Shown: positions 29,101 to 64,000 of the stretch, in pieces
How positions within the stretch are numbered: position 1 is the first letter of the stretch
Layout: each line of letters opens with the position of its first letter
Origin: Marsupella aquatica
Lineage: Eukaryota > Plantae > Marchantiophyta
DNA length: 64,000 nucleotides
Assembly (NCBI GenBank): GCA_973895155.1
Contig: OZ316891.1
Span: forward strand, 186,001-250,000
Direction of reading: 5' to 3'
The notes under the pieces: model-generated
What the model was told of the DNA's origin: nothing
Seen by the model: the letters and a program-made list of their open reading frames with translations, nothing else
Databases searched by the model: none
Translations under genes and position numbers: made by a program

Positions 29101-29432
29101 ATCTCGGCTGGACTAGCCGAGTCGGTCCCTTCCTTGGTGTCCATAGATTGTCCCCTTACCGGTCTATTCGGTTTTGAATTAGTGGTCGGCTCCCCTTCCT
29201 GCCTTGGCTCTGGATCTTGTCTGTCCATCTCATCCACCTCTTGCTCCTGAGAGTTAGGCCGCTGTGCTCTCTCGGCTTCTAATAGGGCCTCAATTTGTTC
29301 TGCCCTCGTAATCGGCTTGTATGCCGATCCCTTGGTATTTAATTCCTTGCCGATGATCGATGGCGTTGTGGACCCCGTCGGCTCTGCCACAACGCCTGCA
29401 GAAAATCCACTGTCCCTGCTACTGCTCCCCAC
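26166..29432 (-). CDS. pol: Pol: reverse transcriptase, RNase H, integrase
   Basis: RVCQDYRKLN, MPFGLCNAP, FIDD, DVSG...EREALG...TDH, H/C zinc region, WGIDYIGP...SDRG...TERAN, WLGPF. Confidence 0.97.
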   Translation of the reverse strand: MGSSSRDSGFSAGVVAEPTGSTTPSIIGKELNTKGSAYKPITRAEQIEALLEAERAQRPNSQEQEVDEMDRQDPEPRQEGEPTTNSKPNRPVRGQSMDTKEGTDSASPAEIPVYGGMRLERLEAELDPNLKKQINMIQARQYRKLDLGEGRELNLGRNLAPELEKEISDLLIEFQDVFAWSHQDLKGVDPTLGEHRIDLMLGAKSFRQPIRRMNPKYSLLVKTEIDKLVEAGFITPVLHSDWVSPIVIVPKKAGPDGKPKIRVCQDYRKLNEATLKDHFPLPFTDMVLDMVASHELYSFMDGYSGYNQIRIWQEDQIKTAFITEWGIYVFNRMPFGLCNAPAMFQRLMVNIFHDYLRKFMEIFIDDFAVFGKASKHAKYLRKTFMRCREVGLKLHPDKCFFAVTEGVLLGHKVSRKGIEIDKGKLAVWLDIMQPKNIKDVRSFLGCIGYYRRFIKDFAKLALPLTNMLKAGADFEPTPERVTAVVELKQMLVEAPVMIAPDWNKDFHVFVDVSGFCIGSVLSQLDEKGRDHPIYFASRQLADAERNYSTTEREALGVIYSCKKFRHYLLGYKVIFHTDHESLKYLVNKPDLTGRVARWILLLQEFDYELRIKPGKLHANADFFSRITGKPATDCIDDRFPDEELFVVEIAGTWYPEILQFLSTSRLQPGLSREQAAVFVRKVRQYQCIKGILHKHGINGTIQRCLEKREVKRVLRAMHGEEAGGYFAPVTTSKKILNAGYWWPTLHKDVYQFIKQCDPCQRAGGPRASTRHPLHPILPLAPFEKWGIDYIGPLKPLTHPRRNKYIILATDYATKWVEARPTTKDDAITTARFMYEQIFTRYGAPLELVSDRGTHFLNDIISRLNEQYLVKHRPTTPYHPKANGLTERANGIIGKILNKTVAQNKLDWDDKLFAAVFAYNLAYKSTTGHTPFFLTFGQEALVPMQLEIPTFQVTIEERASAEESLKEREYRLEALEEARMISAERVEYRQNIMKQQYDKRLKVVSVHTGDLVLLYDSRYSRFPGKLYTRWLGPFRVTMMFPNGSVQLANITGEVYPVRIHYDHLKKYYMDEDEVVREDASQLSGELCDA
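26178..26190 (-). promoter_or_regulatory. Polypurine tract AAGTGGGGAGCTA (inside the integrase reading frame)
   Basis: Directly abuts the TG of the 3' LTR. Confidence 0.85.
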
Positions 29433-32332: not shown

Positions 32333-32379
32333 TACCTACGCTTCCGTTCTAACTTCATATCTCACGGCTTAAGAAATGC

Positions 32380-32397
32380 CCCCTCCATCTAGCGCCA
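32380..32397 (-). promoter_or_regulatory. Primer-binding-site-like TGGCGCTAGATGGAGGGG
   Basis: TGG-initiated, 4 nt after the 5' LTR; primer tRNA not assigned. Confidence 0.75.
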
Positions 32398-32401
32398 AAA
32401 A

Positions 32402-35400: not shown

Positions 35401-37025
35401 CGATCGTAGGACTAACAGGTGGTTGAGGCTTCTCAGCCAACGGCCTCGGTGTTGGAGCTTCCTCGGGTGCCCTTACCTGCAGGGGAAGTACCGGGGCAAA
35501 AGTCTGACCTCTGGCATACCGGCACAACAGCGGCATGTGATAGCCAAGCCGCGACACGCTCCCCATGCCGATTACCTGCTGCTCCTCCTTTAAGATCTTC
35601 TTCAATTGGTTGAGGAGGTACCCGTTGTAGTCCCGGCTTGGGTCTGGCCTTTCTGCCAGATAGACCTGTGCCTTGCCGATCTCTGCCCTCGGCAAGTTAC
35701 AATGCATGGTCACCCGCAAGAAGTCGATCATCTCTCCTATGTGCGGGTTGGTGCAGGTGTTCCGGAAGAAGCCATTCTTCGTTGATGGCCCGGGGAACGA
35801 CCGGAACTCCTTGTCAGGCAAGGTCTTCCTGGTATCAACTTTGGTCTTATTGCCCATCGGCAAGCCAAACACTTCGGCAATTACCTTGGGAGTAAGATAG
35901 AAATCCTTCCCATATATCCTCGTGCAATTGGTCTCGGGTTCCCATGACCCCACGAATTCTAATAGGTCTGACTCCGGTACCTCCGGCTTCAGCCATGGTA
36001 ATCTTACAAAGGCCTCCAAGCCGGATCCGGCCATGAAGCCTTGGTACTTCTTGGTCTGCATGGCCGTAAAGCATGCATCCTCCTCCCGTGCAAAATGTAG
36101 TTGCACCTCCACCGGTAGGGTTGCCGCCCAGCCCTTCCAGGTGTCATCCCTGGTTGGAATGGCCTTGATGGGATCGACCTCCTTCTCTTCGGCTTCTCCC
36201 TGCCTCCTGCTCTGCTGCTCGGCTGGCTTCTTTGGTGCCGCCGACCTCGTTCTTTTTGCCGGGGTGGCTTCATCGTTGACGGCTCCCTTCCTCTTCATCT
36301 CTGCTGCCGTGGAGGTTTCTCCTAGCACCGTTGCCTGGGTCCACCTTTCCGTGCTACCCTTTAATTCCCAGTGGATGTCGTTGCAGTTCTTGATGGCCTC
36401 TCGGATGCCGACGACGCTGTCTTTGCAAAACAGAAGATCGTCGAGTTGATTGGAAGTAGGCGTCCACAGGAACTCGTCCTTGATGAGTTTGCCTCCTAAG
36501 AAAGCCGTCTTGTGCAGCTCCCACAATCGAGCGAGCTCCTGCCGTTCTCGAGCTGCCCTTTCTGACTCCTCGTCCTCGTAAGTCTTGATGTACTCAGTTG
36601 CCCGTTCGAACAGGCATCCCCAGAAATGTGCCGCTTGATTGACGTTGCTCATACCCTCCTTAGGTTGATCGTCGGTATCTACTCTCTCCCCGAGTGCTTG
36701 CCTAAGCAGCTGACAGTAGTTGGCCTCCCGTAGTCGTCTGCCTAGTTCGTGCTCGCAAATGAGCCACCATCTCCTGCAAGCGCTCCTTACCCCTCTCCTC
36801 TGCCGGTCCTTCTTCCCGTTGATCCTTCCTAGCCGCCGACGCTTAACGCGCCCTAACCCTAATCGGGTTTTCACCCTTAGCCTTACCTCCGGCCTCTGCC
36901 CGGGTTCCATGGTTGCCCCTAATTGTTTATATTTTCCTTGTTTTGTCACTATACTAAGGTGTTCCTAGGGTGCCTTCCTGCTTTACCCACTTAACCGGCC
37001 GAGTGATTCCTGTCTAGGCATCACA
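32402..37025 (-). repeat. 5' LTR of family A, 4,624 bp
   Basis: Direct repeat of 21554-26177. Confidence 0.97.
33323..36949 (-). CDS. Second intact copy of the LTR-encoded 1208-aa protein
   Basis: Six amino-acid differences from the 22475-26101 copy. Confidence 0.85.
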   Translation of the reverse strand: MTKQGKYKQLGATMEPGQRPEVRLRVKTRLGLGRVKRRRLGRINGKKDRQRRGVRSACRRWWLICEHELGRRLREANYCQLLRQALGERVDTDDQPKEGMSNVNQAAHFWGCLFERATEYIKTYEDEESERAARERQELARLWELHKTAFLGGKLIKDEFLWTPTSNQLDDLLFCKDSVVGIREAIKNCNDIHWELKGSTERWTQATVLGETSTAAEMKRKGAVNDEATPAKRTRSAAPKKPAEQQSRRQGEAEEKEVDPIKAIPTRDDTWKGWAATLPVEVQLHFAREEDACFTAMQTKKYQGFMAGSGLEAFVRLPWLKPEVPESDLLEFVGSWEPETNCTRIYGKDFYLTPKVIAEVFGLPMGNKTKVDTRKTLPDKEFRSFPGPSTKNGFFRNTCTNPHIGEMIDFLRVTMHCNLPRAEIGKAQVYLAERPDPSRDYNGYLLNQLKKILKEEQQVIGMGSVSRLGYHMPLLCRYARGQTFAPVLPLQVRAPEEAPTPRPLAEKPQPPVSPTIEQVFRPRKEDLPMQQPGMQSLLKLLEKEKKSASVTTTATATMQDTTTEVGLHRLTRENPFAGDKERIRPESKPGVRMYVGTSSSESEAELPEAPTEEEEREKPEIQEVEEAVEDCSHDNSGYGSDHHVPGVRTCGRFVPTLPRVVRGDPNQQSSPESPPPDVAPPSFDGIKQTVQEFQERIKQEEEAALAKEKDLPGGDWPEDIRRLAKKGSKPLATIEEIRRTAWEQRPRWAMPITSTYSTYAKNRAMEYGEMCGELALGIFGEELEVGPFFHREQLEKHQLEEAVALERSKKDEVIRRLRRMGAEIEDLRAAKKAQDELRIKRHELNIMQGQLDAAQADNQNIKDKLTQTQEELADTIKEREKWKQELKNTEEAHITANSRAMAETQRKEWALKGELEKIRGALEQKEVELGKSYQGIMALQQELASLTASFKADLREKDEMLEQTYAKMNQMESVIIAELDKELRATQEEKATLKKELEEAHREQEEAKNELEGARKDLDETQEELEEITRKMENLQRRADNQTERLKKQAAVFKCLAAAGPSPVGTNQLPGVVIAEGQAAPPAPVPEVSGKGKGPAAEPPTKKKRKPSGSRSNTTSQVVVIKEVDPAPTPDRVTAKDPTTLGEGEAEAVGLAEAEAVGVVEAEAEGGPSQADGELTRSRAGNLSVGGPTAVAEEEVLGASIEDPPPVS

Positions 37026-37093
37026 TGAAGCATTGAGGGACAGGCAACGCGGGCACTGGTATTTCTCTATTGGCTTTTATTACAGGAGGCATC

Positions 37094-38020
37094 ATGCCTT
37101 CCAAACGGAAGCGTGAACTTGTCCCCCTTCCAACTTCCCAGTGTGCTCCCATCTTCCAAGGGGTCAGAGTCTTTTTTGTCCCAGGTATTCAGAGTGCAAG
37201 ATTGGATATCCTTAGGAGAAAACTCATTGAGTGTCACGGTATAGAGACACAATCTCAACTACAGGACACTGAAGTCACCCATATTATTGCAGAAACATGG
37301 GAACATTGTCTGAAAATGGCATCTTGGTCGGTTTTCTATGACAAAGTCTTCTTGAGGCATGTCAAAATACTTTCAGCAGAATGGATGTCTGACTCCCTTA
37401 GAAAAGGGAGTGTCCAAGATCCTGATGATTACAATTTGTTTGAGAGCAAGTACAATAGCGTCCAAATGATGAAAGACAGTCGAGATTGGCACAAGGCTCG
37501 TAGAATTGCAGGGAGAGGTGGGAGTAGGGTTCTGTCTATTGACCAGATCACAAAAGTATACAACAACATTATCCCATATGAGACAGAACCCATCCCAGAC
37601 CGTACCATGTTCAGAGGTGTGAGGGCTGTTATACTTGACAAGTCTATCAAGCCATATAGGGTCTGTCGTTTCAAGAGGGAGATCAGTAGAAGAGGTGGTA
37701 CAGTGATTGAGAAGCTCACTAATGAGACCACCCATCTCATTGCTCATTCATATTCTAAGGCATGCCGACAGTATGGAAAGTCCACAGTACGATGGCTCAT
37801 CACACATGGGCTGCGTGTGGTCTGCCCTGAATGGGTCAGGCAGTCACTTTCAACAAATATGCGATTAGATGAGCATAAATATGATTTATATGAAATATGG
37901 CCAGCAAAGCCATTCATTCCCTATGACGACCCAAAATATGTTACTTCTGAGTTCCAGACCACGGATGAAGAGTTTTCTGATAGTGCGTATGATTCTGTTA
38001 GCCCTAATGATTATGAATAA
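37094..38020 (+). CDS. Tandem BRCT-domain protein (DNA polymerase lambda-like BRCT) inside the CACTA
   Basis: Two repeats: IFQGVRVFFV...VTHIIA...SAEWMSDSL and MFRGVRAVIL...TTHLIA...CPEWVRQSL; N-terminal MPSKRKR. Confidence 0.8.
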   Translation: MPSKRKRELVPLPTSQCAPIFQGVRVFFVPGIQSARLDILRRKLIECHGIETQSQLQDTEVTHIIAETWEHCLKMASWSVFYDKVFLRHVKILSAEWMSDSLRKGSVQDPDDYNLFESKYNSVQMMKDSRDWHKARRIAGRGGSRVLSIDQITKVYNNIIPYETEPIPDRTMFRGVRAVILDKSIKPYRVCRFKREISRRGGTVIEKLTNETTHLIAHSYSKACRQYGKSTVRWLITHGLRVVCPEWVRQSLSTNMRLDEHKYDLYEIWPAKPFIPYDDPKYVTSEFQTTDEEFSDSAYDSVSPNDYE

Positions 38021-45454: not shown

Positions 45455-46021
45455 GTACCAAATACAATTTGAGACTCAAAATGTGAAGGATTGTTTCAAT
45501 ATATGACCACAATTTGGAGTACATGATGTTGGGTAATACTCTTTTTTTTATGGATTGCTCATATTTTGAGTTATTATCGTGCCATTGTTAGTTGGATTGG
45601 TGCTTTTGTGACATTAATGACTCAGTCTCGACTATGAATAACAGCATTGTCTACGGAAACTAGTGCGGTCAATTGAGTGTTATCAATCACTCACGGAAAA
45701 CCCCATATGACTCGAACTAAGTCATTCTAAACACTTATGTTTGACTGATGTATGGTTCCAAATACTTGACCCTCTAGTCACTAAAATGACTAATGACACT
45801 AGTCAATAATATGACTAAGTTAATCCAAGTCACCACTTTTATGACTACTAGTTGTAAGAACGACGTCAGTGATTTTCAGTCATACATGACCGGTTTTAGT
45901 CATAGTTAGTCGTATTTTATGGTAAAAAATAGGGGGTATTTCTACTAGTGAGCTTCAAATAAGGTTAAAATGTTTTTAAATGGATCACTTTCACTCTGTA
46001 GTTCCTTTTTACCTTTCGACA

Positions 46022-46946: not shown

Positions 46947-49900
46947 GGGGTATAGCAGTGGAGATAGGAAACAGGAAACAGTTTTCCTGTTACCAGGTAA
47001 TTTCTCCTGGTAACAGGAAATTGTTATTGTAAATGTGTACTATTTGGCAAAGTTTTTCAAAAATTCACGTAAGGAACAACCACATACTTAAGCTAAAAAT
47101 ATTCCTACTGGCATAACACACGACGTCAGATATAAGTGAAAGGTGTGCTCACAGTTGCTCGGAGAGGTTCCAATCCCTTGTCACTTCCTTAGATTATAGA
47201 TAAAAAAGGGTTGTCATTCAATTCACTGCTGTTTACATACAACAACAGTTCTAAACAGTCCACTTTGGAATGCTTCATTTAGTTCATATACTTCATTAGT
47301 GTGTTTTTAAAAAGCCAAACCATAAAACCCATGGAGGAATGGAGTATGCTCAGGCGGGACCCACCACAAAGCCAGTTATAGTCTGAATTATGTTATCAAA
47401 AACATAGGGGTCTATCAGGCAGAGTGTGAAACTAGCGCCAGGCACTAACAAAGGATTAAGTACGCAGAATATAGGGACGACAATCAAAGCTTACGGGACC
47501 ATCCAATGACACTAACCAGATAAAACAATTTTTTTATAAATAAGTTATTGACCAGCGCCCGACGCTAACCAAAACCACATAAAAAACTAGAGTATATCCG
47601 TTGACTAAAGACAAAACAACATAGTATCCGTTATGGAATACGACAGTTAAGGAAAAATCAAGTCCCTCTATAAACCATTTGCGTCCTGCCTCTCCAACAC
47701 AAGTCTGACTTCTCCAACTGTCAAAATCGGCTGGCTACATAGGGTAGACTCCTCTACATGAAACTTGAAGACATTTATGAACACCCACTACAAATGTTTA
47801 CAGGGCATATACGGCTTGCCGCGGGAATGATGACGGAATAAATCCTCCCAAGAACAAGTAGGGAAGATGCACATTTGGACAAAGTAAGTGTTTGGGGATC
47901 GAAGGTTCTCGTGAGTCCGTATTCTGAATTGTTTTCCAAAAGCAATTCCACTAGTCACATCCCACTCTCCATCCAGAGTCATAGCTTTTCTTCGAGCCGA
48001 CTCCATTCATTTATTGTGAGACACAGTTAGATTAGAGCCAGGTCTGGAGTTCCTCCCATTCTTGCTACGAAGGCGCACGTTGGGCTCCGCAAAATTGATT
48101 TTCTCTGGAAATGCGTTTACATTGATTCTCAAGTCGAATGCAACAGGTGCAGTTCGAGTTCGAGAGGTCGCAGTTGTTTGGACCATAGAGACTCCCTGCG
48201 CTTGAAGGTACTCTATCTCGCCAAGCGAGAGGTTTGTTCCTTTCACAACTGGCAGGATGTCCGGTACAGGAGAAGGCGTTCAACACCATGACGCAGGCGG
48301 CTCTTGTAGCATGTGCTGTTTGGGCAGAACCATATCATTTTGGAAATGGGCGTTCCTCTGAAAATGCGATGTCCACTGACAACAATGCCGACAACACCAG
48401 CAGCATAATGGAACCCTACTTTCTTGACACGATTCAACACTCATCTCTGTCAGAATTTCCATGCAAGGTCCCATTACACTGTGGCCCTGCCCCATATTTG
48501 GCCGTCTGTCTCAAATGCCAGCTTCCTCTTGGAACGTCCATTTCCAAAGGAGCTGATTCTGTCGGCAAACGTTGAAGCACAGCAGGGGCACTGCGTGGTG
48601 GTTGAGATGATGTTGTTTCCCTCGTGGCTTCAGGGGTGCTCGCAAGGGAATCGCTTTCACTCATTGAAGTGTCACTCCCACAGAGGTCCACTACAGGATC
48701 TTCTACATTGGTGGGAATGGAAGTGAACTCAGTGTTGTTAAGATTCTTTCATTTGAATCCTCGAGTATTTGGGGTAGTGATGAGAATGGTGTCATGCCGA
48801 TGGGAGTCTTGTGGCGAGACAATCCCAGTTGCAAGTCCCTTCCTCTTAACAGATTTGGTGACAATATCTCCATTCAGAGGAGAATTCCTATCCAGATCAA
48901 AATCGGCAGAGTTGGAAAGAATCATGTTAGTGGCTTCTTTGAATAACTTGGGTGAACTTGCTTGGTCTGCCAAACGGAATGCTAATTCCCAGATAGTTGG
49001 CCCCTTCCCTCTATTGAGTCCTTTCCGATATGCACTGTAACCCGCAACTTGAGATATAGCCCAATTTTGATCAACTTCGCATGCTTCGAAGAGACCCACC
49101 ATTTTTTTGGTTGCCCATGCTTTCATTGAAGCGTGCCTTGACTTAGAACCTGTACAGTTTGGAATGAGGGCACCTTCTTCTGCGCTTTTGCTCTGCAATG
49201 AAGTGGACCCAGACCAACTTTAGTCAATTTTTTAAGCAGCAGCAGGCGCTAGCAATGTATATAATATATTTCAATATAATGTTGCTATTCTCAAGTGTTC
49301 CTAAGTCATGAATGTGCAAAGTTCTCTGTACAGTTTAAAGCAGCGCCAGGCGCTAGCAATGTGTATGATAGAATGATATAATGTTGCTATCTGTACAGTT
49401 TAAAGCAGCGCCAGGCGCTAGTATAAACATATTGAGAAGTGAGTATTGAACACATTGATAAAACTTACCACGCAAATGAAATTCCCCCACTGACGCCATC
49501 AAACGACCCACCATGATATCCAACTCTGCAACATCATCAGTTTTCCTGGAACACAATTGCCTGCTTGCCACCACAACACAATCTCCCTAGAAACTTGGTA
49601 CGCCGCAACAAACGATGGAGCATTTCGCAATTTCTCCCACAGTCTTAGATGTTCAGGTTGCCTACCCTCCAGTACTCCCTCCGTGGAATGTTGATGGAAA
49701 GACTGGTAAAAGTGGAATGCATCGGAGCGTTCACGTTCAGGGTCTGGGTGACCCCCAAAAACAACATTGCAAACGGCAATCCATCCAGCCTGAGCATTGT
49801 CGGCCATAAAACCTTGAACGGTTACCTCATGTAACCCATTTTCCTTACAAACCTCTATCATAATTCTCCATGCCTTCTCAAAGGACTCTGTGTCCTCAGC

Positions 49901-50957
49901 TTTTAGTTCGCATGTGAATATTGTACAAAGAGCTCGAAAGTTGTGATCGTAAACGTGTGCGCTAAAAGTAAACCAGTTGGTTGTCACTCGCTTCATGACA
50001 TCAAAACTCACCCAAGCCCCTTCCAGTCTTCCGCCAGGTTGCATCTGCCGTAGAAGATCTACACCAGATCCATGACCCTTGACTGACATTTTGAATATGT
50101 GGGGCCGATCTGCTAAACAACCCTGACCCGGCAGAAGATACCTTTGGAGGAAAGAAATATTATTTGACCTTTGCATTCAAGCTAGGAAATCTAACTCACC
50201 ACGACCAGCTTGGTCCATTCAAATGCTACGACAAAGGGATGCAAATTTATGAGGAGAAGATAGAACCATGAGAGACTTCCAAATTTCCGTTTCTTCAATA
50301 TCTACGATGTCGTCAACGTTCTCGCAAAGAGCTTTCACAAGCAAACCAGCCGCCGAATTCAAAATCCCAGCCGGCTTTGCAAGAGGATTGGCTTTGTGAT
50401 TTCTTTTTATTAAGTCCTCGGCCATCTTTTCAGCGCTCCTCGAGAAAACTTTTCTACTCAGATGGTTATGTTCACCTATATGAACCGCGAGCCGAGACAT
50501 GTGACTACAGGTTTCTGTATCAAGTAGAACCTGTGGATACATATAGAACAAGCGAGCAGGGCAAGAGTCCACACAGAAAGGAATCTGTTCACAGTAGTGA
50601 CATACTATACCACCCTCTTCAATGAACGAACCCACCACATGCTGGCCACTAAGCTTAGGGGTACCAGCCCACGCTTTTGAATTGCATCTCTTCTTTCGCC
50701 AAAAATACTCACAGGACTTGTTCCTGCACTCAATGAACCTAGTACAAGTGACTTTACCAAACTCCCAGTGTTTCTTTGGTTGCACGTTTGTGGTCGTCGC
50801 AAAAATCCTGGTCCAAATGTAACAATCTTTGGCACAGTCCATGTCACAAAGTCTAGATCCTTTGGACTGCATTCCCACAATGGGAGGCAATTCAAATAAA
50901 ACATTTCTGTTGTACTTGTTTGGCAAACAAGGAACTTGATCGTGTCGGAAGTCCCCT

Positions 50958-52643
50958 TGTCGTAAGCCGTAAGAACACAAAAGTAACAAAATATCTTTAT
51001 AAACTCGGAATTCGATCCCTTTAGGAACAGAATTGGAATAGATTGAATGATATAGTAATTTTGAGAGGTTTAGAGTCTCTTACTCTATACAGCTCAAATT
51101 TTCCTCACAGGAAAAATAAGAAAACTAACAAAACACAAACAAAACAGACTTTTGAGTTATGAATAAAGATAAGCTTCAATTGAGTGAGATCATTATCACT
51201 TTGATATTGCCACTCCTTCAAAAAGGACTATGGTCTTATTATATACAAACAAAATTTCTCTTAACTCATCTAAACTCTCCTTAAATCCATAAGAATACTG
51301 ATTGAAAGATTTCTACTCACCAAACCCAAAGGTAGATTTTTGATTACATATACTAAGATATTCAATAAAATGCCGTCAACATGGATTGATTATCAGTGAT
51401 GCGCACTTTCAATCAATCACTATTGAATATACCAGAGTACAGTAATGGTACTAACTACTGTGAAAATGGAATTTTGCTTCTCTCAATCAAGCATTAATTC
51501 TCAAATTGGCTAGCAAATCTCATTTGAGTAAGTCTAGCAGTGAATTTGATATGAATCTCAAAAGGGTGTGATTGTAATTCAGTCACACAAAGTATCTCCT
51601 GAATTCATTCACAAATCATAACATATATTTTACTTCCATACAAGTCTCTCTTGTTAAAATGGAAGGTGGAAAACTATTCAGAATTCTAACATCTGAATAA
51701 CATTTTGTTCCCCCCTTTCGGACTGGTAAAGAAAGGGGTCTTATAGGTGTAGTCTGTCAACTGAAGAGTCATGACCTTTCAAACCTCAATATCTAAAAGG
51801 TAATCTTAAAATGGAAAAAATAAAGTGTGGAAAATGCAGTGGGCGCTTCTCAAAGCGTCGAGGTTTGAGCGGACGCTTTGCAAAGCGTCGGTGTTTTTCG
51901 ATAAAACTAATAAACAGTGATCTTAATCTAATTTTAACTTCTAAACTAAACGTCAGAATGAGTTGAAACTTTTCTAGGGTACTCTACTACATATAGTCTA
52001 TATGCTGGAAAAGTTTCAGACTTTTCTGAGATCTCTAAGTGCCTCAAATAAATCAGTAAAAGTGGCACAGTGTTATAAAAGTGCGAAAAACGAAAATATT
52101 TCTAAGTGTCGGGAACATAGTGGACGCTTCAGAAAGCGTCCAAACCTACAAAGGACTTTTGTGGACGCTTCAGAAAGCGTTGGCTGAATTTTGGGGTTTT
52201 GGTCGCAGCGTCCGTCTTTTGGGCTCCGGGTGCGACGCTTCAGTCAGCGTCAGTGTCGATGTCGCCTTGGAGTGGCGGACGCTTCAGAAAGCGTCGGGTC
52301 TTATGGGGACGCTTTTAGGAGCGTCGCGGCGGTCAGGACTTGATAATGGACGCTTCCAAGTAGCATCAAGTTTTGGACTGTTCCAGTGGACGCTTCAGAA
52401 GGCGTCCAGTACTTGGTGCCGGTCACAGACGTTGGATTGGTGCCGCAGTTGAACGTATACTAACTTCTCAGATGGACGCTTCAGAAAGCGTCCGGAGTTG
52501 GGCTGCTTGAAACAGAGTAGTGAGGGCGGACGCTTTAGAAAGAATGCGGACGCTTCCGAAAGCGTCATCCTTGGCTCCAAAAAGTTTGAAAAAATCCCGA
52601 TTAAGCTCTTATTCATAATATTCAACAAAAATGCCTTCCCACA
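50958..52643 (-). mobile_element. Solo LTR related to family C, 1,686 bp
   Basis: TG...CA ends, 5-bp TSD CCCCT (50953-50957 and 52644-52648); removing it restores the frame FISAG-DFRHD. Confidence 0.93.
51842..52567. repeat. Array of about 12 palindromes GACGCT-N6-AGCGTC in the solo LTR
   Basis: ggacgcttcagaaagcgtc repeated with variants. Confidence 0.9.
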
Positions 52644-54112
52644 CCCCTGCCGAGATAAATCTTGACAGTTCACTATGGCCCGTGGCCTTGAGTAGGGGGT
52701 CCATTGCACTCCGCTGGTAAACCTTCTGGACACCTTCGGAAGTGGCCACCTGTTCACTCTTAAGGCAACTCGAGCCTGAAACTTTGTGCTTCTCAGGAGG
52801 ATTGGGCGCAACTTCCTCATCTTCACTCTCAGATATTTCAACAACCTGGGGCGGAATGTCCTGAACAACCGATTGAAGAGGAGTAGGTCTGACATGAAGC
52901 GTGTAACGAAGTCCTACATTCATGTGCCAGAAATGTATTCCGTCATCCACATCAAATGCCGTAGCTGGTTCAAGTCTTCCACTCGATGACTCCTCAGGAA
53001 CAATCGACTCAATGTCATTGATTCTCAAATCGAATCTCCCGCACAGGTAGGTCTCGCTTACTTGCTTGTAAGTATCAAAAACTTGCACGGGAACCTTGAC
53101 GACGTCCGCGGTACAAGCACGTGTAATAACAATTGAGCGTAACATTGTAGATGAATGAAGTTTAGGCCAAAGGAAATTCATGCACTAACCCAATCCCGAC
53201 CGTATTGGTTGCTTATACCACCCCTTCAAGGACCACCGGCCATTAAAAGAGATGTTCCAATACGACAAAGAACACGCACAACTTTGCGTCTGTTGAAATC
53301 ATAAATGAGACATTTGTCCTTTTTGCCCGGCAAGTGCGGGTGTAAGGAATATTTATTACATGAATATGACTAGATAATAGCCTATACAAGTGCGTCCATT
53401 TCATTAGCGTCGGGCGCTACCTAAAAATCATTGGAAAAAACAATGACTTATTTTGAAAAGTCTTGTGACTAGCGCCTGAAGCTAGCATAATCATACACGA
53501 AATATCGATGTTTTTTCCTTCAAAATATTGCATCACAAGATCAAATAAAGCTCAAAAACAGTAAATCGTTACTAGCGCCAGGTGCTAGTATTGATACAAT
53601 ATACTTAATACCATAATATCAAGTAAAGTTTAGTTACTACGGGTGAAACGAGTACATTTGGAAGTTTGTTGACAATATCTGGTACTAAAATAGAACGTTA
53701 ATCAAATTATTCAAATGGCTAGCGCCGGGCGCTAGCATTTGTTCACCAATAAGTGTTTGAATTTGGTAGTCACTTCTTCGTTAGCGCCCGGCGCTGGCAT
53801 TGCATTCTGTCTGAAAGGTGTTGAGACAACGGTAACATTTAACGGTAACTAATGTTTAGCATGATGATCATGACAACATTTTAGCGTAATTCACATTAAT
53901 ACTTATTGCAATTTCTAAATTGTCGGCTTTCTGTCACGGATAAATAAAATTGAATCTCGTTGTTCGCAATGAGTAACGTCTCTCCAACCGATTACAAAGA
54001 GGGGAATAGCACTCATTGATCGGATATAATACAGCCACAACTGTTAATATGGTACGGAGAACTGGTAATCAATCGTGAGAATTTTGTTTGTACACCTCTC
54101 ATCGTAAAGACG

Positions 54113-56236
54113 ATGGATGCAATCCCCTCCTCGTCGAGGGGGTATAGTGTGGTTGGGGATCAAGATCGTGGATATTGTGAGTCTTCTGAGTCTTCATTCT
54201 CTGGTTTGGTGTATACGCGTCGAGTAACGAGATCCACCGCATCGCTTGTTCCAATCTCCGGTATTTCGTTTGCCAAGCCAGCTAGAAAGAGATGGAGAAT
54301 CTTGACACATTTGCGATTCAAGATGTTTTGTTTTCCGAGACGGATCTTATTTCAAAACATGTCATGTCATTTGGGAAGGATTTAAGAGGGTTTGACAAAG
54401 AGCCTCCACGAATTCCACTATGTCGATTGGTGCATATGGAGGTTGTCCGAACTCTACAGAAAGATAGTTCTTCCATCGACAAGCTCAAAGACTCCTTCCG
54501 TAGCATGGGATACAATTCTTCGATTGGAATGAGGTTTTACGTTCAGCCTACCAATGTTGAGGGAGTGCTTCTCACCTATACTCAAGAAATTCGTGAGAGT
54601 TGGGATCCAATATGGACATCTGAGAATGAGAAATTTGAGGAAGAATGTGCTGCCGACCCAGATTTTCTGGTTTTGAAGGACATAATGTTCTCAGTTTTTG
54701 ACGGGAACCATAGGCTTTATTTGTGGACTCTTGTCACTCAGTAGAGTCCCAAAAACCCAAAGTACCACCCGCATGTACTTTGTACTATTTTCAACGGCGA
54801 CAAGGGTTCGCTGATAGAAATCAAAGCGGCTATGCATACCGTTAATCAGTAAGATACTCTTTTGTGCATAACTTCGTGAGTCATTGTGAATTGTTCATTC
54901 TTTCTAGCATAACTTTCCAAGGCTATGTTTTACAAGCGCCCGGCGCTGCTTATATGTTCTTCTCATTTCATTCTTGCATTTCAGGCTTGGACAAGCCGTT
55001 GTGGAACCCTCTTGGATCCTAGACGCCAATCGAATTAAGCGGATCTTGATGCATGACCTAGAGTACTATAGTAAGCTCATCGACCCTGCGAATTACAAGA
55101 AGTTTGAGCAGATCAGGATGAAGACGCGAAAAGGATCCTGGTACACAAAGAAGATGCCTCAGGAGGCCCTTGTGTACATTCTATGTTAGGATAAGATTAA
55201 GTCGTATTCGAACCAGTTCAAGATTGACATGGAGTCCGCTGCGGCCCTCGGTTCCCCTTGGTCGGTCGAGGGGGTTTCCAGAAGGCATGCCGTTATGATG
55301 AAGGAAGCAACCAAGGAATGGGCAGTGAAGACCTCAAATATCACTCCTTTGTTGAGTCCAGAGTTTGAGGACTTTCTGTCTACGTGCGCAAAAATGTATG
55401 CTGTCACGGAGAGGAATAAGCGGGAGAAGAAGCCAGATACCGTGTTGTGTACCATGGACCGGGCTAGGCTTTTTACAGCTATTTTGGCTCTTGACGCCAA
55501 GCTACAAAGTACTTTGCTTGTAGCACATTGCAATCCGGAGCTCCGAAGACAATTCTTCCATCCGAATAGCGTCAATGATGATCCAGTAAAATAGTGGTGT
55601 CACACTTGGATTACATGGAATAATGTAGAAGGGATTGCGGTGGGGATGTTGCAATGTGCTCTGCGAGAGGTCCAACAAACCATTCCCGTGAATCGTTTAC
55701 AAGATTGGGCATGTGAATCATTCGAATCTCTCATTGACAGTCACAAATGATTTTAGGAAATACGGTGACTCTGTCAAGGGTAAGTTTTTTAATACAATGT
55801 GGCCCTCGAAGTATCCTGACAAAGAGGATTACTCTTTGAAGAACCAGAAGCGAGCAAAACGGTACCTCTACCGTTTTTACATCCACATGGAAGCTACAAA
55901 ACCTGATTACTTCTGGGCGTATCCCGCCGCCTTCCTCAAGTGGACTGTAGTACCGGAGAGTGATTCTTTAGCTGAATTGTATTCTATGTATCCTACCGAG
56001 GGAATTTTCCCAGCAAGACCTTTGAGTGAATGGGAGAGAACCCATTGTCCATGGTACCTAGATACAGATAGATGGGACTCGCCCTTTGATCACAGAGAAA
56101 AGGATGCTTTCCATAAGCTGTCTAAGTCCCAGATCCCAGTCAACGTTGTTTCTGACATGAAGCAGGGGCTTCCGGACGATGTGGATCAATCCACAACACA
56201 ATTGCAAACAATATGCAAGACAACAATTGTTCATGT
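54113..56236 (+). pseudogene. 5' half of ParB/Srx-like cargo gene of element 1 (stops, frameshifts), cut at 56237
   Basis: RIPLCRLVHMEVVR...FSVFDGNHRL...AAMHTVN; intron 54849-54984; the downstream part is closely similar to 61630-62780. Confidence 0.75.
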
Positions 56237-56849
56237 GGGCATCACCACCGAGATAGGAAACAGGAAAATAGATTTCCTGTTAACAGGAAAACAGGAACCT
56301 GTACCATGAATGTTTTGAAGTTTTGAGCCCACATTTTAGCGAAAGGTAACACTTGATCGGGTTCCTTACAACAACTAAATGCAGTCACTTCTCCACCACA
56401 TATACATAAACCATCGAGTGGGTCCCACCATACACTGGCTGCTGATACGAAACACACTCGAAATGTTACTTATCTTAAAAATATCATCGGAATCGGAACT
56501 GTATTCTATAATATCGCTAGGCGCTAACAAAAAAACAAACCAAGATTTCTAGCCCTTTTAAATAAACTTCTTGCAAAAATACTTACTAGTGTAAGAGTTT
56601 AGATGAGAAGAATTCCATTCCCAGAATGTTAAGAAATGGAAATTTTGGTGGCAAACACAAGTACTTTAAAGCATCCATCCGGCCCATGAAATGAAAGAGA
56701 TTCACTCAGAACGGGACAAACTTATGCTAGCGCCAGGCGCTAGCCATATATATTAACCAAATGTGATCGTTGAAAAGAAATGAAACGTTGCACATGCGAC
56801 AAATGAGGTTGGAGCCGTTCAACGTTACTAAATCTCTAGTCTATAAGTT

Positions 56850-57354
56850 TAGAGAATTATGCCTAGCTAGAATGAGCCTCACCTCACCTCACCTACAGTC
56901 AAAATTGAATCCACGACATCTAGTTTGAGGACGTTGGTATAAACCCAATATAGATGCTTGCAAGGCATGAAAGGCCATCCATGAGAATGGCGACGATAGA
57001 AGTCCTCACAAGAACAGCAGGGGAAAATACAAATCTGCACCCAATAAGTGTTTGCCGTACGAAGTTTCTCTTGGGTCTGGATCTGAAATTGTTTGCCCCA
57101 GGAGTTTCCGATTGAAACATCAAACTGTTGAATCAGTGTCATCGGCTCCTTGTTTGCAGATTCAATTCTTTTGTTGTGTCCTTGTGAAAGATTTGAAGGT
57201 GGGACTGTATTTTTACCATTCCTACTCCAAAGGTGGATATTTGGCTCCAGGAGATTGATTTTCTCAGGGAAAACATTCACATTGATTCGCAAGTCAAATG
57301 GAGATGGAGGAGTCTGATGTCCGGCCTCTGGATTGATCGCAATCCCTTGTTGAG
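56850..57354 (-). pseudogene. Transposase C-terminus with SWIM finger (element 3)
   Basis: CSCEDFYRRHSHGWPFMPCKHLYWV; joins in frame to FLSQQG at 63827. Confidence 0.8.
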
Positions 57355-59178
57355 GGGGTATTTACAAAAGACAGGAACCAGGAAACAATAACAGGAAACA
57401 ATTACTGTTACCAGGAGAATTGGAGGTAAAAACCAAAAAAATCAGACCAAAAAAAGGATTCCAAACAATCAAAATTAAAGCCCATTTGAGTCATTTTCAT
57501 TAAAATAGTCTCATTCCGGAGGAAATATCCCGTTGAGTAGTCCGACATAAATTTGTGATGATTACCAGCGCCCAGCGCTAGTATAAATGAAGCGAATGGA
57601 AATCTGGTAGGGTCTCATAGAAGAAGGAAAAATTAAACGAAAATCTACGTAACCTCAATCGAGAAGACAATGAGCGGCTGAAAATGAGGCAATTCAAATA
57701 AAAAGAGGCAGGGTCATACAACAACAAAATCCGGATCTCATTGCTAGTTTAAACCTCAAAATCACAAAATCCATGTTTAACGCCATCGAGAGGAAAACCA
57801 TACATTGGAGATTGAGCCGATCACAAATTCATTTACTTCAAAAATGGGTGAAAAAATATCACCAAGATTACACGGGCGACGGAAAGCAATGAGTATAAGT
57901 AGCGCCCGACGCTAGCTTAAAACTACAAATCCCGCCCTTCCATGTGTAACGCCATGGAGAGGAAAATGGGTTGATCCGAAAAGCATGTCCTATCAAAATG
58001 GGCGAAAACATATTACCCAGATTACCAAATCCTAACAAAACATTTAGTACTGAAAAACGAATATGGAAAGCATCCAGCTTTAGCAACGCTCGGCGCTAGC
58101 TTAAATATAGCTGCCTAGGAACCTAATCGCCATAGGGTTGCACTCCAAAATAACCTAAGCGACTGCAATTGGAACACCTTTAGCTCTGTGATTGACAGTC
58201 ATCATCGACTCCCGCCCTCGCCGGCTTGTAGTTTTTCTTGAATCCTAAACCCCTGAGCCGAATATAATTGGAAGAGGGAACTCGATGCTCAGCATGAGCT
58301 TGGCCAGGGCCCACAAAATTTGCATCAAGGAAGTCGACGCACCCCAATTGCTCTTGCACACGACGTTCAATGGGCTGCTGACCATCAGCAGGAATGACTT
58401 GATGAAACGAGAACCGATCGTCAAATTTGCGTGGAGTCTGTCGGTCACCAGTCCATAGAATATTTCTCTCCCCAGGACTAATCGCCTTGTCGTAAGGAAG
58501 AGAATTACGGTTCCAAAAAGTTGATGTCTCGGTCTCAGTGTCGACACAAACTGATTCGAAGGAGCTGAAGTGGCTCTCCACCGGTCAAACTCGGGAAGGA
58601 CTGAAGAAGGCAAGCATCTCGTCCAACGACATTGGTTCCCTCCTCTCCATGTGGTCACAACCCAGCTCGACAACGTCCACACGCAGGTCGACAACGTTCG
58701 CACCTTAACATCCGCACCTTAACTTCCGCACCCAACTCGACAACGTTCGCACCTTGCCCTAAAGTCCGCAACCAGATCGACAATGTCTGCATATTTATCG
58801 ACAATGTCCGCACCTTTCTCGACCGTCTCCAAAAGGTTGACATAGTGACTACCAACGGATGGTCATCGGTGGACACCCGTAACATGCGAGCTTCAACGGG
58901 CAGAGGACCGTTGAGTAAAGAGTCAAATCGTGACACGATTATTTTGAAACAGACCAGACTTAATTACGTAACGACAATATACGGATGGCGACAGGATGGC
59001 GACAGAACGCATGAACGATATTATGATGTAAAGGTTCGTGGAAAACTGTGCACATTTGGGGAGCGCCTGGTGCTACTAAACGAAGAGACCAATTTAAAAC
59101 CTTTTACATAAGAAATACATGTACCTCGATAACAGCGCCCGGCACTACTAAAGACAACAAGTGGTTTTTAGATTTTTA

Positions 59179-59524
59179 GAGTAAAGCTACATCATTAGTT
59201 ATCAATGTTTTTCATCAGTCAACCTGATATCAGTCGCCACGTCATCTTAGAGAGGCCGCCAAGTTGGGGCGCCGAAAGAAAATGCGAAAAAAAAAACTTT
59301 TGCGCATCTCAACTGGGGCAGCTGAGATTGACTCAATCTCAGCTGCCCCAGCTGAGATCCTTACGCCGATCTCGGCGAGGTCAGCTGAGATGCGCGAAAG
59401 TGCGAAGGCCCTATCTCAGCTGCTCAGCTGAGATTCAGAAATTTCAAGGCGACCAAACTGATACCTGATATCAGTGACTGATATCAGTTATCAGCCACTG
59501 ATAACTGATGATCCTCGCTACCCC
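59179..59524. mobile_element. 346-bp Mutator-like MITE
   Basis: 9-bp TSD AGATTTTTA (59170-59178 and 59525-59533); imperfect TIRs G(A/G)GTA...ATCATYAGTTATCA; internal CAGCTGAGAT repeats. Confidence 0.8.
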
Positions 59525-59629
59525 AGATTTTTATTATGAGCATATGAAATGAAATACATGTCTTTTCATAACAGCGCCCGGCGCTAGTAAAAGCTGGAAA
59601 AGAAAATTACATCAATTATCTGTTTTTGA

Positions 59630-62600
59630 TTCAGATTCCGATCCAAAGCTCTGTGATATGTCGGTAGAGACTGCTTTGTCATCGACATACTTGCTCTTAG
59701 AAAAGTCATTTAAGACTTTAGGGTTAGGACTTTAAATGACTTTTCTAAGTACAAGTTTCTAGCAAACTTTCTGTCAACTCCTCTTCGAAGGCGGAGACCT
59801 TTGTTTTCCCAGCACAGAGTCCTTTGATTATCCTCCTTCCTCACAGCGTTCTCAGCGTAAGACGGCAAAACAAATGGTTTCTCCGGTGTATCCAAAACGT
59901 GCAACTTTTCTTCTGAGTTGGAAGCGCTTTCTGGTATTCCATTCGGACCTGGGTAGATAACCAAGTAAGACAACCAATTGAAAGATACAATGAATAGCAA
60001 AAAATGCATGAAGGAGCTGGAAAAGAGAAAGAAGCTTACGAGTTTCAGAACATTACTCGGAAGAGTCATCGCTATCACTCTCGCCAGCAGATTGCTCCTT
60101 ACCCCCCCTGAGTTGTCTCCCCGTCCACTTCATCTGCTGTCCCCCCACTTGACTCATCATCGGAGTCAAAATTAAGTACAGACCGGAGCTTGTCCCTCTT
60201 TTTCTTTTTTGGTGGTTGAATTGGGGGAGGCAAGGTTCCTACTTCCTTAGAAGAGAGTAGATTTAAGAACACCTTGGAACCAGTTTCAACAAAATCCTTC
60301 CGATTCTCCAGTCCAATTACAAACCTCCCAGAATAGTCTCCGGCTACAAAAGAGCTACCCGAACCAACTGTCCAATCTATGAAAATGTCCCGAGGACGAG
60401 TGATGAGCTCAATCACAGACTGCATGAATCCAACCGACAAACGGGCATTCCCTGCGAATTCCATCTCAGGTGTTGGATCTATATTGAGAGTGGGAAGCCC
60501 AATTAAATTAGTGATGGAGGGATCTTCTGTAACAGACAGAGGTCTAAACCTCGAGTCCTTGGGTACTTTCCCTTTATGAGATACTCAGCAAAAGACGTCT
60601 AGCCTGAGCGTGAATATCTGCGAGATAAACCAAGAATGATATGTCATTCCATGCATTCATACACATTCTTGAGTGTTAAAAACAGAGATCGCGACTTGGA
60701 ATTTACCTGTTGGTCAGTCTTCGGAGCGTACATAGGAACTAACATAACAACATTGTGTGTTGAGATGCAATGAAACTTCTTCGATTCCTGACATTTGGAT
60801 ATAACCTAAGACATAGGATCGTACTCCCCATTATGCAAAACTGCTAGCATTCCGTCATCTGATAAAAATGGGTCCATTCCACGAAAGAACGATGTTGCCA
60901 GTGTGTGGTCGGGGGTATTCCATTTCGGGACTTTTCTATCTAGCAGCGATGGTTTCAGACCAGTAGGAAGGTAAATGAATCCTGCGTGTACTCCAAATGA
61001 TCTTTCCTTCCCCCCACGGACAATTCCCTTGTCTTGATATCCCGACTTCATGAGGTCCTTTGCCCATTTCTCTACACCATTTACCCAGTCAGGCTTCTCC
61101 TCTTTGTTGAACATTGTGTCATAGAATTCATAGATGCTAGACTCAACCATGCAATGCCTTGAAAGAGTGTTTTTGAAGTCACCAACTTCTCGTTGAACAC
61201 CTGTTGCAGCCGCACTTTCCCGAGCGGAGGATGATCCACCTTCAATTGCCCTTTTTTGTTTCTTTCTAGTACTAACCGCATCTACTGGAGCAATTGACTT
61301 CCCTTTCTCGATGGGTGTAAGTGGGTCAGATGGAGGCGATACAAAGATAGATGTAAAACGGATGTAAAACGCAAAGTATACTAACGCCCGGCGCTGGCCA
61401 AATTTCTCAAAGAGATGGAAGCAAAAATATATATATATATATATTTAGGGTTTAGGGTATATATATACAAATGAGACAAATGAAATCTAACATATATTGA
61501 ATGGCATAGCAGCGCCAGGCGCTAACCAAAGAACTACAAATTATACTTACATTTTTTCCCGGACCTTGTTGATTCACTTGGGACAGCAGTATCAGCTTTC
61601 CCTTTCGTGCAAGGCTTTCGGCTTTAGTCAACGTGAACAACTGTGGTCTCACAGTTCATTTGCAATTCTGTTGTGGACTTATCTACATCATCCGCTAGTC
61701 CCTGCTTCATGTCAGAAACAATATTGATTGGTATCTAGGACTTAGAGAGCTTGTGGAACGCATCCTTTTCTCGGTGATCAAAGGGCGAGTCCCATCTGTC
61801 TGTATCTAGGTACCATGGACAGTGGGTTCTCTCCCATTCACTTAAAGGTCTCGCTGGGAAAATTCCCTCCGCGGGGTACATAGAGTACAAATCAGATACA
61901 TTGTCGCCTTCTGATATTACTGTCCACTTCTGAAAGGCGGCGGGATATGCCCAGAAGTAATCAGGTCTAGTTACTTCCATGTGGATGTAAAATCGGTAGA
62001 GGTACCTTTTTGCTCGCTTCTGGTTCTTGAAAGAGTAGTCCTCTTTGTCCGGATACTTCGAGGGCCACATTGTATTAAAAAACTTACTCTTCACCGAGTC
62101 TCCGTATCTCTTGAAATCATTCGTAACTATATCAATGAGAGCTTCAAAAGATTCACATGCCCAGTCTTGCAAGCGATTCTCGGGAATGGTTTGTTGGACC
62201 TCCCGCAAAGCACACTGTAACATCCCCACTGCAATCCCCTCTACATTGTTCCACGTAATCCAGGTATGACACCACTGTTTTACTGGATCATCATTCACGT
62301 TGTTCGGATGGAAGAATTGCCTTCGGAGCTCAGGATTGCAATGGGCGACAAGCAAAGTACTCCTGAGCTTGGGGTCAAGTGCAGAAACAGCAGTAAAAAG
62401 CCTGGCTCGGTCCATCGTACACAAGACGGTATCAGGTTTCTTCTCTCGTTTATTTCTCTCCGTCACAGCATACATTTCTACGCACGTAGATAGAAAGTCC
62501 TCAAATTCAGGACTCAACAAAGGAGTGATTTTTGATGTTTTCACTGCCCAGTCCTTGGTGGCCTCCTTCATCATTACGGCATGCCTTGTGGAAACCTCCT

Positions 62601-62780
62601 TGGCCGACCAAGGGGTACCTAGGGCCACAGCGGACTCCATGTCAAGCTTGAACTGGTTAGAATATGATTTAATTTTATTCTCACATAGAATATAGACAAG
62701 AGCCTCTTGAGGCATCTTCTTCGTGTACCAGGATCCTTTCCGCGTCTTCAGCCTGATCTGCTCAAACTTCTTATAATTGG
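59630..62780 (-). pseudogene. 3' part of the cargo gene, with a beta-class N4/N6 DNA methyltransferase-like domain (about 60250-60990)
   Basis: HAGFIYLPTG (degenerate DPPY position)...KWN...FLSDDGMLAV, then ITRPRDIFIDWTVGSGSSFVAGDYSGRFVIGLE (SAM-binding motif I); intron 60618-60706. Confidence 0.7.
61427..61467. repeat. (TA)n microsatellite with embedded (TTTAGGG)2
   Basis: Seen directly, in an intron of the cargo gene. Confidence 0.8.
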
Positions 62781-62796
62781 TCTATGATCCTGGATG

Positions 62797-63121
62797 AGAG
62801 GAAGCTATGATCCTGGATGGCGAGTGGGATGTGGGTATTGGAATTGCATGTGGGAAGCAATTCAAAATCCGGACCCACGAGAACCTTCGATCCCCAAACA
62901 CTTACTTTGTCCAAATTTGCGTCTTCCCAACCTGTTCCTGTGAGGATTTCTTCCGTCGTCATTCTCGTGGCAAGCCATATATGCCTTGTAAACATTTGTA
63001 TTGGGTGTTTATAAATGTCTTCAAGTTTCATGTAGAGGAGTCTACCCTGTGTATCCAGCCCATTTTCACAGTTGCGGAAGTTAGACTCGTGCTGGATAGG
63101 CAGAACGTGAATGGTTTGTAG
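62797..63121 (+). pseudogene. Transposase 3' remnant with SWIM finger (element 2)
   Basis: RKAMILDGEWDV...CSCEDFFRRHSRGKPYMPCKHLYWV is homologous to 47668-48006. Confidence 0.85.
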
Positions 63122-63826
63122 AGTAACACGACATTCTAGAGATTGTCGTTTTTCGTAACAGATACTATGGTTTTTGTCTGTAGTCAACGGATATTACACT
63201 TGTTTTTTCTTTCTTTTGGTTAGCGCCTAGCGCTGGTTCCAGAACATTAATATTTTTAAATTTTCAATTTTATCTAGTTATTTTCATGTCGTTGTCCCTT
63301 AACTTAAACTTTTGTCCCTGTTAAAGCTTTGTTAGCGTCGGGCGCTAGTTTTCACACTCTGTCTGGCTCCAATATTGCAAATTCCAGAACCCTTCTTCGC
63401 CGATCGGTTGTTTAAGCCTATAACTGGATTTAGGGTGGGTCCTACCCTAAATTACTCCATCCCTGCATGGATTTTATTTTTCCTTCTCGTAGGCCGAACT
63501 GCGCTTTCTGAACTGGACTATTCTGAAATGATGTTGTATCTAAATAGCAGGGATATTGAAGGACGACATTATTCATGTAGAACAAATGGACACTCGGTTT
63601 GGAACCTCTCTTTGCAGCTATGACCACACCCTTGGCTTATATCTGACCTCGTCACATTTGGCACTAACAAGACGTTCAACTTGATGATGTGGTGGAAAAT
63701 GACGTTAATTTTTTGCAAACTTAGCCAAAAAAGTACACTTTTACCATAAGACTTTCCTGTTACCAGTTAAGAGTTATCTGATAACAGGAATTCTGTTACC
63801 TGTTTCCTGTCACCGCTGTTATACCC

Positions 63827-64000
63827 TTGCTGAGATAGGAATTGGACCTCAACTTCCGAAAGATTTGTGCCCTTCAAAACGGGCAGGGTATGAGGAAACG
63901 GGGGAAGATTCACCACATTACGACGGGGCCGACTCTTATAGCATGCATTATTGGGACAGAACCAAATCATCTCAGGATATGGTTCTCCCTTGAACATGCG
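63827..64000 (-). pseudogene. Transposase of element 3, upstream part
   Basis: MIWFCPNNACYKSRPRR...KGTNLS matches 48200-48350 of element 1. Confidence 0.8.

Follow-up and report, generated by a model that had tools for sequence, protein, structure and literature searches.

Transposon-encoded ParB–methyltransferase-like proteins and related systems

The closest described counterpart of the gene considered here is found in Sola1-1_Ec32, a transposon of the brown alga Ectocarpus, in which a gene opposite the transposase encodes a 1104-residue protein with ParB and N4/N6 methyltransferase domains (PMC12477816); the available passages of that report also cite similar green and red algal proteins (Iyer 2011, Petroll 2025). 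Here, a gene of this design is described in a liverwort, within a 64,000-nucleotide stretch of Marsupella aquatica DNA (GenBank assembly GCA_973895155.1, contig OZ316891.1, positions 186,001 to 250,000 of the forward strand; hereafter the window, to whose numbering all coordinates refer). It is the accessory gene of a cut-and-paste transposon family, likely Mutator-like, of which the region studied holds three nested, dead copies (E1, E2 and E3). Its product is predicted to join a ParB/sulfiredoxin (Srx) fold to a beta-class DNA amino-methyltransferase fold, and may act on its own element through AGCGCCNGGCGCT palindromes.

The liverwort and Ectocarpus proteins share the same two domains in one chain of about 1100–1200 residues, encoded on the strand opposite the transposase, and for the Ectocarpus protein, too, the proposal is that it attaches to the element that encodes it and modifies that element. 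In other respects, the two differ, the comparison being one of architecture and not of sequence: the host is a land plant, the transposase is probably Mutator-like rather than Sola, and the target-site duplication is of 9 rather than 4 bp. The liverwort family also has a D[LMI]P[TS] motif IV and candidate palindromes, the string ‘palindrom’ being absent from the main text of PMC12477816.

A second parallel is offered by VANC of the Arabidopsis VANDAL elements, where, as here, a Mutator-like element combines an accessory gene with a short, partly locally duplicated motif in its non-coding DNA. In the passages available, VANC is a DUF1985/DUF287 protein associated with non-palindromic motifs of 8–9 bases (PMC5735166, PMC10398659), whereas Pfam finds no DUF1985/DUF287 match in the accessory protein. 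With phage ParB–N6N4 fusions and the ParB, KorB and Noc clamps, as far as these are covered in the parts of a recent survey available (10.1101/2025.10.10.680097), the accessory protein shares domain order and a GxxR box, its candidate sites are likewise palindromic, and it matches phage-type N6_N4 look-alikes. Unlike the phage fusions, it is the product of a spliced eukaryotic gene, has a 350-residue helical middle part and has no ParA: no ParA partner gene lies within the elements, whose whole gene content is the transposase and the accessory gene. The same parts of the survey give sulfiredoxin as the main eukaryotic member of the ParB fold, make no mention of plants or transposons, and regard the nucleoside triphosphate (NTP) specificity of the fold as unpredictable from sequence.

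Beta-class amino-methyltransferase folds of bacterial type are also known in eukaryotes from the Marchantia protein MpDN4MT1 and the bdelloid N4CMT. In the available passages, these are host genes with an SPPY motif, which none of the 38 aligned accessory rows has, and MpDN4MT1 has no added domains (10.1101/2021.02.12.428880, PMC8885841, PMC10406627). Retrotransposons of dinoflagellates and charophytes provide a further case of transposon-encoded DNA methyltransferases for which self-methylation has been proposed; those described in the passages available (PMC5890265) are, in contrast, host-derived C5 enzymes carried by retroelements and have no ParB module.

No ParB–methyltransferase cargo of a land-plant transposon was found in the literature searched, a weak negative in that the searches also missed PMC12477816; the parts available of PMC12513842 and PMC12885004 held no relevant passage, and those of a review of Mutator-like elements (MULEs) name no such cargo. 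Liverwort cases may already be included in Iyer 2011, Petroll 2025 or their supplements. The ParB-plus-methylase design is not new; what appears to be new is the land plant, the Mutator-like host, the odd catalytic motif and the candidate sites. The algal reports left this accessory class as a proposal, which land-plant gene models, deep clades and a candidate site now make testable. Three points are at issue: can a ParB-type nucleotide clamp function on the chromatin of eukaryotes, does a plant transposon mark its own DNA with N4-methylcytosine (4mC) or N6-methyladenine (6mA), and can an amino-methyltransferase do without the motif IV aromatic? The answers may bear on how liverworts acquired 4mC enzymes of bacterial type and, if the proposal is true, a writer that loads at defined sites and then spreads would make a useful tool for epigenome work.

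The accessory gene and its relatives

The accessory gene is divergent from the transposase and spliced, its 5' part being preserved in E1 and its 3' part in E2. A first-pass annotation of the sequence had placed its DGNHR motif in an exon of E1 and had seen the overlapping 3' part in the second element, both of which hold. Exon 1 (54113..54848, plus strand) starts with the ATG at 54113 and encodes the ParB/Srx-fold domain, with IPLCRL, VVR, DGNHR (54700-54714) and AMHTVN; its reading frame shifts near 54285 and meets a stop codon at 54742. Exon 2 of E1 (54985..56236, plus strand), encoding the helical middle domain, has two stops and one frameshift and is broken by E3, while in E2 this domain (61551..62781, minus strand) still has a 348-residue open frame. 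The two copies of the gene overlap at 87% DNA identity over 1148 bp.

Downstream in E2, methyltransferase exon A (60707..61338, minus strand, with one stop and an acceptor site that looks mutated) carries the motif IV YLPTG (60973-60959), a Trp in WN (60922) and LSDDG. An 89-nt intron separates it from exon B (60040..60617, minus strand), in which RPRDIFIDWTVGSGSS...GRFVIGLE (60377-60306) comprises the motif X/I segment DWTVGSGS (60377-60354) and an acidic residue at 60308. The last exon (59612..59948, minus strand, splice sites inferred) places the end of the gene at 59612 rather than at 59630, as had been annotated. All the window copies are, as was also supposed, decayed, with stops, frameshifts and an interruption.

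That the gene is carried by the transposon, as first proposed, is clear from E2 (57356..63826), which moved as a unit with matching ends and a 9-bp duplication: since it holds the 3' part of the accessory gene and a transposase tail between these ends, the gene moved inside the element. The accessory gene, moreover, evolved under purifying selection. Between E1 and E2, over 377 codons, dS is 0.57 and dN/dS 0.098, as against 1.6 and 2.2 in shifted-frame controls; the transposase tail gives a dN/dS of 0.17 over 104 codons.

The named relatives are all from liverworts. A search with the middle domain returned 92 cluster representatives, 30 of which were looked up; of these, eight named ones are from Riccia sorocarpa and two from Calypogeia fissa, and every named representative or member in this set (24/24) is a liverwort protein. 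Two further searches gave 26 and 25 proteins, all of them from Riccia sorocarpa; among the intact Riccia proteins is KAL3677308.1. Four automated gene models of Riccia (P0095, P0128, P0138 and P0140) each combine GNHR and motif I within a single chain, bearing out the claim of a single fused polypeptide. The intact model P0095, of 1207 residues, has all the domains in one chain and matches the window at 33% in the ParB exon and 31% in exon B, and weakly in exon A (24%, E 0.006). In a tree of the middle domain (31 rows, from which rows shorter than 180 residues and redundant Riccia rows were left out), there are several deep clades, Calypogeia occurring in two of them; the window row falls within a supported set of 12 that includes one Calypogeia protein. 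Judged by these relatives, a liverwort host is probable.

Elsewhere, relatives were not found: a word-based search with exon A among longer proteins, a metagenome scan with the middle domain, and viral and prokaryotic scans gave none. One further locus, L001, is a decayed relative of the accessory gene. Loci L002-L005 were ruled out as unrelated phage contigs. No transposase was found in L001 or among the relatives' proteins examined; a SWIM-like hit in the former (E 0.11) was discarded, since it coincides with a copy of the palindrome.

Predicted folds

The structure predictions for the two folds used Riccia proteins rather than the damaged copies of the window. For the front part (mean predicted local distance difference test score, pLDDT, 75), the first structural match is pNOB8 ParB (Z 7.2, root-mean-square deviation (rmsd) 4.2, 211 residues aligned, model residues 139-520), followed by KorB (Z 6.0, rmsd 2.6, 95 aligned), sulfiredoxin (Z 5.7, 89/89) and Spo0J (Z 5.5, 166 aligned, model residues 175-510), with SerK also present. 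The ParB/Srx-type matches cover model residues 136-307, mixed with helical-bundle noise, and the pNOB8 ParB and Spo0J alignments continue through part of the helical region, as far as residues 510-520. Both Foldseek lists are topped by Noc, ParB and Srx (E > 0.001), and the Atlas search returned DUF3723, DUF6551 and ParB_N look-alikes below the recognition threshold. The ParB boxes are DGNHR (20/24 rows), RVR (16/24; VVR in the window) and AMH[NT][LV]N (25/27), the Box I Arg, Box II GxxR and Box III Asn being assigned by position. With the conserved GxxR box and the agreement among these moderate matches, the front domain is predicted to be a ParB/Srx fold, in keeping with the first-pass annotation.

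The C-terminal domain is predicted to be a beta-class DNA amino-methyltransferase fold. Its eight best structural matches are all beta-class N6/N4 enzymes (Z 8.2–9.8, rmsd 4.1–5.2, about 167 residues aligned), CcrM, M1.HpyAVI, M.BceJIV, MboIIA, PvuII, N4CMT (Z 8.5) and RsrI being among the matches; Foldseek gave E 1e-7, and phage N6_N4 clusters were matched at 0.95. Motif IV precedes motif I, the permuted Rossmann order of the beta class that had originally been read from the sequence. The two profile searches proposed at that stage diverged: exon B of the window itself gives PF01555 at E 2.9e-4, below the family cut-off, together with Protein Data Bank matches to 5hek/5hfj, MboIIA and CcrM, while PF02195 gave nothing. 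Pfam matches to TRAPP and Anthrax_toxA and matches to designed helical repeats were set aside as chance, below cut-off or compositional.

The predicted methyltransferase active site

The canonical catalytic motif of these enzymes is [DNSH]PP[YFW] (PMC4738411, in the passages available). Motif IV was aligned in 43 rows with letters, from which five misaligned ones were removed; in the remaining 38, the first residue is Asp in 36, the third is Pro in 34, and the fourth is Thr or Ser in all 38 and an aromatic in none. A further alignment that already contained the window row is partly circular and served for register alone. The family motif is D[LMI]P[TS], and the window copy has YLPT, its Tyr being one base from Asp. 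The motif I Gly is kept in 25 of 28 relatives, the window's DWTVGSG...E includes the acidic residue after strand 2, and the Trp downstream of motif IV aligns with DHWD of CcrM.

In CcrM and N4CMT, the amino group is held by the first motif residue and a main-chain carbonyl, while a Tyr stacks on the target base (PMC10406627, passages available). Given that the Asp and the main-chain carbonyl do this chemistry, the chemistry and the S-adenosylmethionine (SAM) pocket look kept in the family, and the stacking lost. YLPT had been taken at first as the catalytic motif, and as grounds for a possibly non-catalytic domain. For this copy the former is right, but the family retains the catalytic Asp, so that any argument that the enzyme is dead has to be built on the missing aromatic and not on YLPT; to that extent the doubt survives. 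Methyltransferase activity is put at near even odds.

Palindromes in the element DNA

With two mismatches allowed, the AGCGCCNGGCGCT palindrome, which the earlier annotation did not include, matches the window at 24 places, as against 0.97 expected and with none of 100 shuffles reaching this number. All but one of the 24 lie inside E1-E3, and eight are exact. Over the span 47434..63346, the sites within the elements lie at 47434, 47554, 49238, 49342, 49407, 53406, 53471, 53574, 53721, 53783 and 54935 in E1 and, from 56513 onward, at 56513, 56729, 57567, 57901, 58085, 59062, 59134, 59573, 61383, 61511, 63222 and 63334. They are found close to the two ends, in the spacer between the genes and in introns, three out of five of which have sites. 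Exons, estimated to cover 60% of the DNA of the elements, contain none of the 23, nor does the solo long terminal repeat (LTR) within E1. The motif was chosen by eye, some sites spread through local duplication (families D8 and D9), and about three are orthologous between copies. In arrangement, these candidate sites resemble those of parS or VANC.

At L001, a different palindrome, GGGAAGNNCTTCCC, has 12 copies upstream of the accessory gene as against 0.31 in shuffles, the motif having been chosen from the same locus in which it was counted. The GGGAAGNNCTTCCC array, at 336-1730 of L001, alternates with a word of the GTCGTGA/TCACGGC type. Elsewhere in the window, ATGACT-N7-AGTCAT palindromes form part of the short, tandemly arranged units of a different repeat (14559-14763 and 45702-45733).

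Possible function of the accessory protein

A ParB-type module encoded beside dispersed palindromes suggests loading as a dimer followed by spreading, and VANC provides the model for a motif that collects in the non-coding parts of a Mutator-like element. In the account favoured here, dimers of the accessory protein would load at the AGCGCCNGGCGCT palindromes of the element that encodes it. From there the protein would spread over the element in a nucleotide-gated manner and would methylate it, at N4 of cytosine or N6 of adenine, thereby countering host silencing. The position of the gene inside the element, the selection on it, the single polypeptide in Riccia gene models, the motifs and the confinement of the palindromes to non-coding element DNA are observed, and the folds are predicted. 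Binding, dimerisation, nucleotide-gated spreading, methyl transfer and anti-silencing are suggested by analogy with ParB/parS and VANC/VANDAL. Taken together, the idea of an accessory writer that targets its own element is judged to have slightly less than an even chance of being right. A more specific version, in which a ParB/parS-like, NTP-gated clamp acts on plant chromatin at subfamily-specific palindromes, deposits 4mC or 6mA through D[LMI]P[TS] and lets the element escape 5-methylcytosine (5mC), with LTRs perhaps hitch-hiking, is put forward tentatively and is unlikely to be correct in full.

Several observations weigh against self-methylation from these sites. The ParB scores are moderate (all Z < 8, all Foldseek E > 0.001), Pfam PF02195 has no match to the accessory protein, and the methyltransferase model has a mediocre mean pLDDT of 60. 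The [DNSH]PP[YFW] rule fails both in the relatives, which have D[LMI]P[TS], and in the window, which has YLPT with Tyr for Asp; P0046 of Calypogeia reads SVGT, two Riccia subfamilies have lost the motif I Gly, and 37 of the 38 motif IV rows are paralogs of one species, Riccia. With regard to the sites, of the 19 changes in the AGCGCCNGGCGCT copies, 16 are of the type C>T or G>A, so that ordinary 5mC decay has acted on these sites as well in the copies at hand. Finally, the solo LTR (50957-52644) has ten copies of GACGCT-N6-AGCGTC, that is, 20 AGCGTC half-sites, one base from the AGCGCC half-site of the Mutator palindrome, and five more lie in a related LTR region (3127-4292), close to a gag frame. 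These arrays possibly reflect hitch-hiking or a shared host factor.

An alternative is a protein that is targeted to the same palindromes but transfers no methyl group, its fold binding SAM, or flipping or reading bases, so as to shield cytosines or recruit host factors. The missing motif IV aromatic (38/38 rows) and the SVGT, YLPT and motif I losses of some lineages speak for it, and DIRS1 retrotransposons offer, in the passages available, a precedent for inactive amino-methyltransferase domains (PMC4738411). Set against this are the Asp, Pro (34/38), Trp and SAM motif retained across clades of only about 25% identity, and the fourth position of motif IV, which is always Thr or Ser and looks constrained. 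The N4-cytosine enzymes RsmH and METTL15 are not known to carry the motif IV aromatic either, which again counts against a pseudo-enzyme, and overall we regard this explanation as rather unlikely.

The palindromes might instead serve the transposase or a host DNA-binding protein, with the accessory protein acting elsewhere or non-specifically. The AtMu1 transposase by itself activates cognate copies, according to the part of the report available (10.64898/2026.08.24.746577), and the 20 half-sites of the solo LTR stand in an element in which no such gene is known. Nevertheless, a different repeat, ACAGGAAA, is clustered at each of the four ends, where transposase sites usually lie; introns and spacers are where the palindromes are found, the other 47 kb of the window having only ten AGCGCC half-sites; and L001 couples its accessory gene with a different palindrome. 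This possibility is held to be a poor one, at odds of about one in five. An improbable last candidate is a transposition helper, similar to TnpA or MURB, that forms a clamp to bridge or compact the element, of about 12 kb, and so bring its ends together, without any role in silencing. ParB clamps do spread and bridge DNA (in abstracts), the AGCGCCNGGCGCT sites span the whole element, and Spm TnpA is required for transposition (10.64898/2026.08.24.746577, in the part available), but the retained SAM-binding methyltransferase fold would be left unexplained. E2 and E3 lack the 5' part of the gene yet retain the sites, which is compatible with any role in trans.

Nested elements and the Mutator-like assignment

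Where the first-pass annotation had recognised two copies, there are in fact three. E1 (46948..56236) comprises the transposase-side end, a decayed transposase and the 5' part of the divergent accessory gene; it is cut by E3 at 56236, and its remainder presumably lies beyond the window. The left part of E3 (56237..57355) consists of an end repeat and a transposase tail and is followed by E2, an internally deleted copy inside E3 with both ends, the 3' part of the accessory gene and a transposase tail. The E1 terminal inverted repeat (46948..47020, plus strand) starts with GGGTAT, contains ACAGGAAA repeats and aligns with the other three ends; indeed, the four family ends (46948, 56237, 57356 and 63826) align with one another over about 60–70 bp, with a GGG(T/C)AT start and ACAGGAAA repeats. 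E2 is flanked by a 9-bp target duplication, of which the left copy (57347..57355, plus strand) is identical to the right (63827-63835) at 7/9 positions, at this one site only; within 63827..64000 the right copy is followed by the E3 transposase, which resumes at 63836.

Contigs from three of four runs join 57343 to 63824 or 57344 to 63825, in agreement with the nesting of E2 in E3. E2 and one duplication make up the 6480 positions skipped at this empty site, and the join continues the E3 transposase, which is 70% identical to that of E1. All 30 bins of the region are covered in all four runs by many contigs of 80–99% likeness, in line with a multi-copy family; contig depth here is not copy number, and one of the runs is possibly the window's own source.

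The E1 transposase (47668..53184, minus strand), MULE-like and decayed, has a Cys/His-rich N-terminal part, an intron at about 49220-49471 and a C-terminal SWIM-like finger. Read by eye, it has D at 50002, D at 49801, DxxH at 49723-49712 and W, the expected E being K at 49144. The E2 transposase tail (62782..63121, plus strand) includes a SWIM-like finger, for which Pfam SWIM gives E 0.021, below the cut-off. This is the sole Pfam signal of the window transposase, the MULE model having no match, and the Mutator-like label given at first is for that reason likely and not proven. It rests on the terminal inverted repeats at the four ends, on the motifs read by eye and on the 9-bp duplication, which is within the 8–11 bp given for MULEs in the review passages available. 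A Sola assignment was ruled out, the symmetric ends giving a 9-bp and not a 4-bp duplication.

Other repeats of the window

The E1 transposase is interrupted by the solo LTR (50957..52644; 1688 bp, TG...CA, with a 5-bp duplication, CCCCT), which is outside the Mutator-like family and had, like the palindromes, not been annotated previously; its gap is bridged, with the joint at 50952-52644, in three of the four runs. At the cargo-side end of E2, two local inverted repeats (59306-59358 and 59458-59494, within 59199-59510) are made of CAGCTGAG and TGATATCAG words, and short imperfect tandem repeats of CGACAA...CGCACC units (D12) lie at 58672-58816.

Upstream, the window holds a CACTA element (17136-45950), whose 31-bp end repeat is perfect and which has frames for Transposase_21 and DUF4218 as well as a tandem-BRCT open frame at 37037-38020. 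Nested within it is a very young LTR retrotransposon (21551-37026), whose 4.6-kb repeats are 99.8% identical, each containing an intact 1213-residue coiled-coil frame with no Pfam match.

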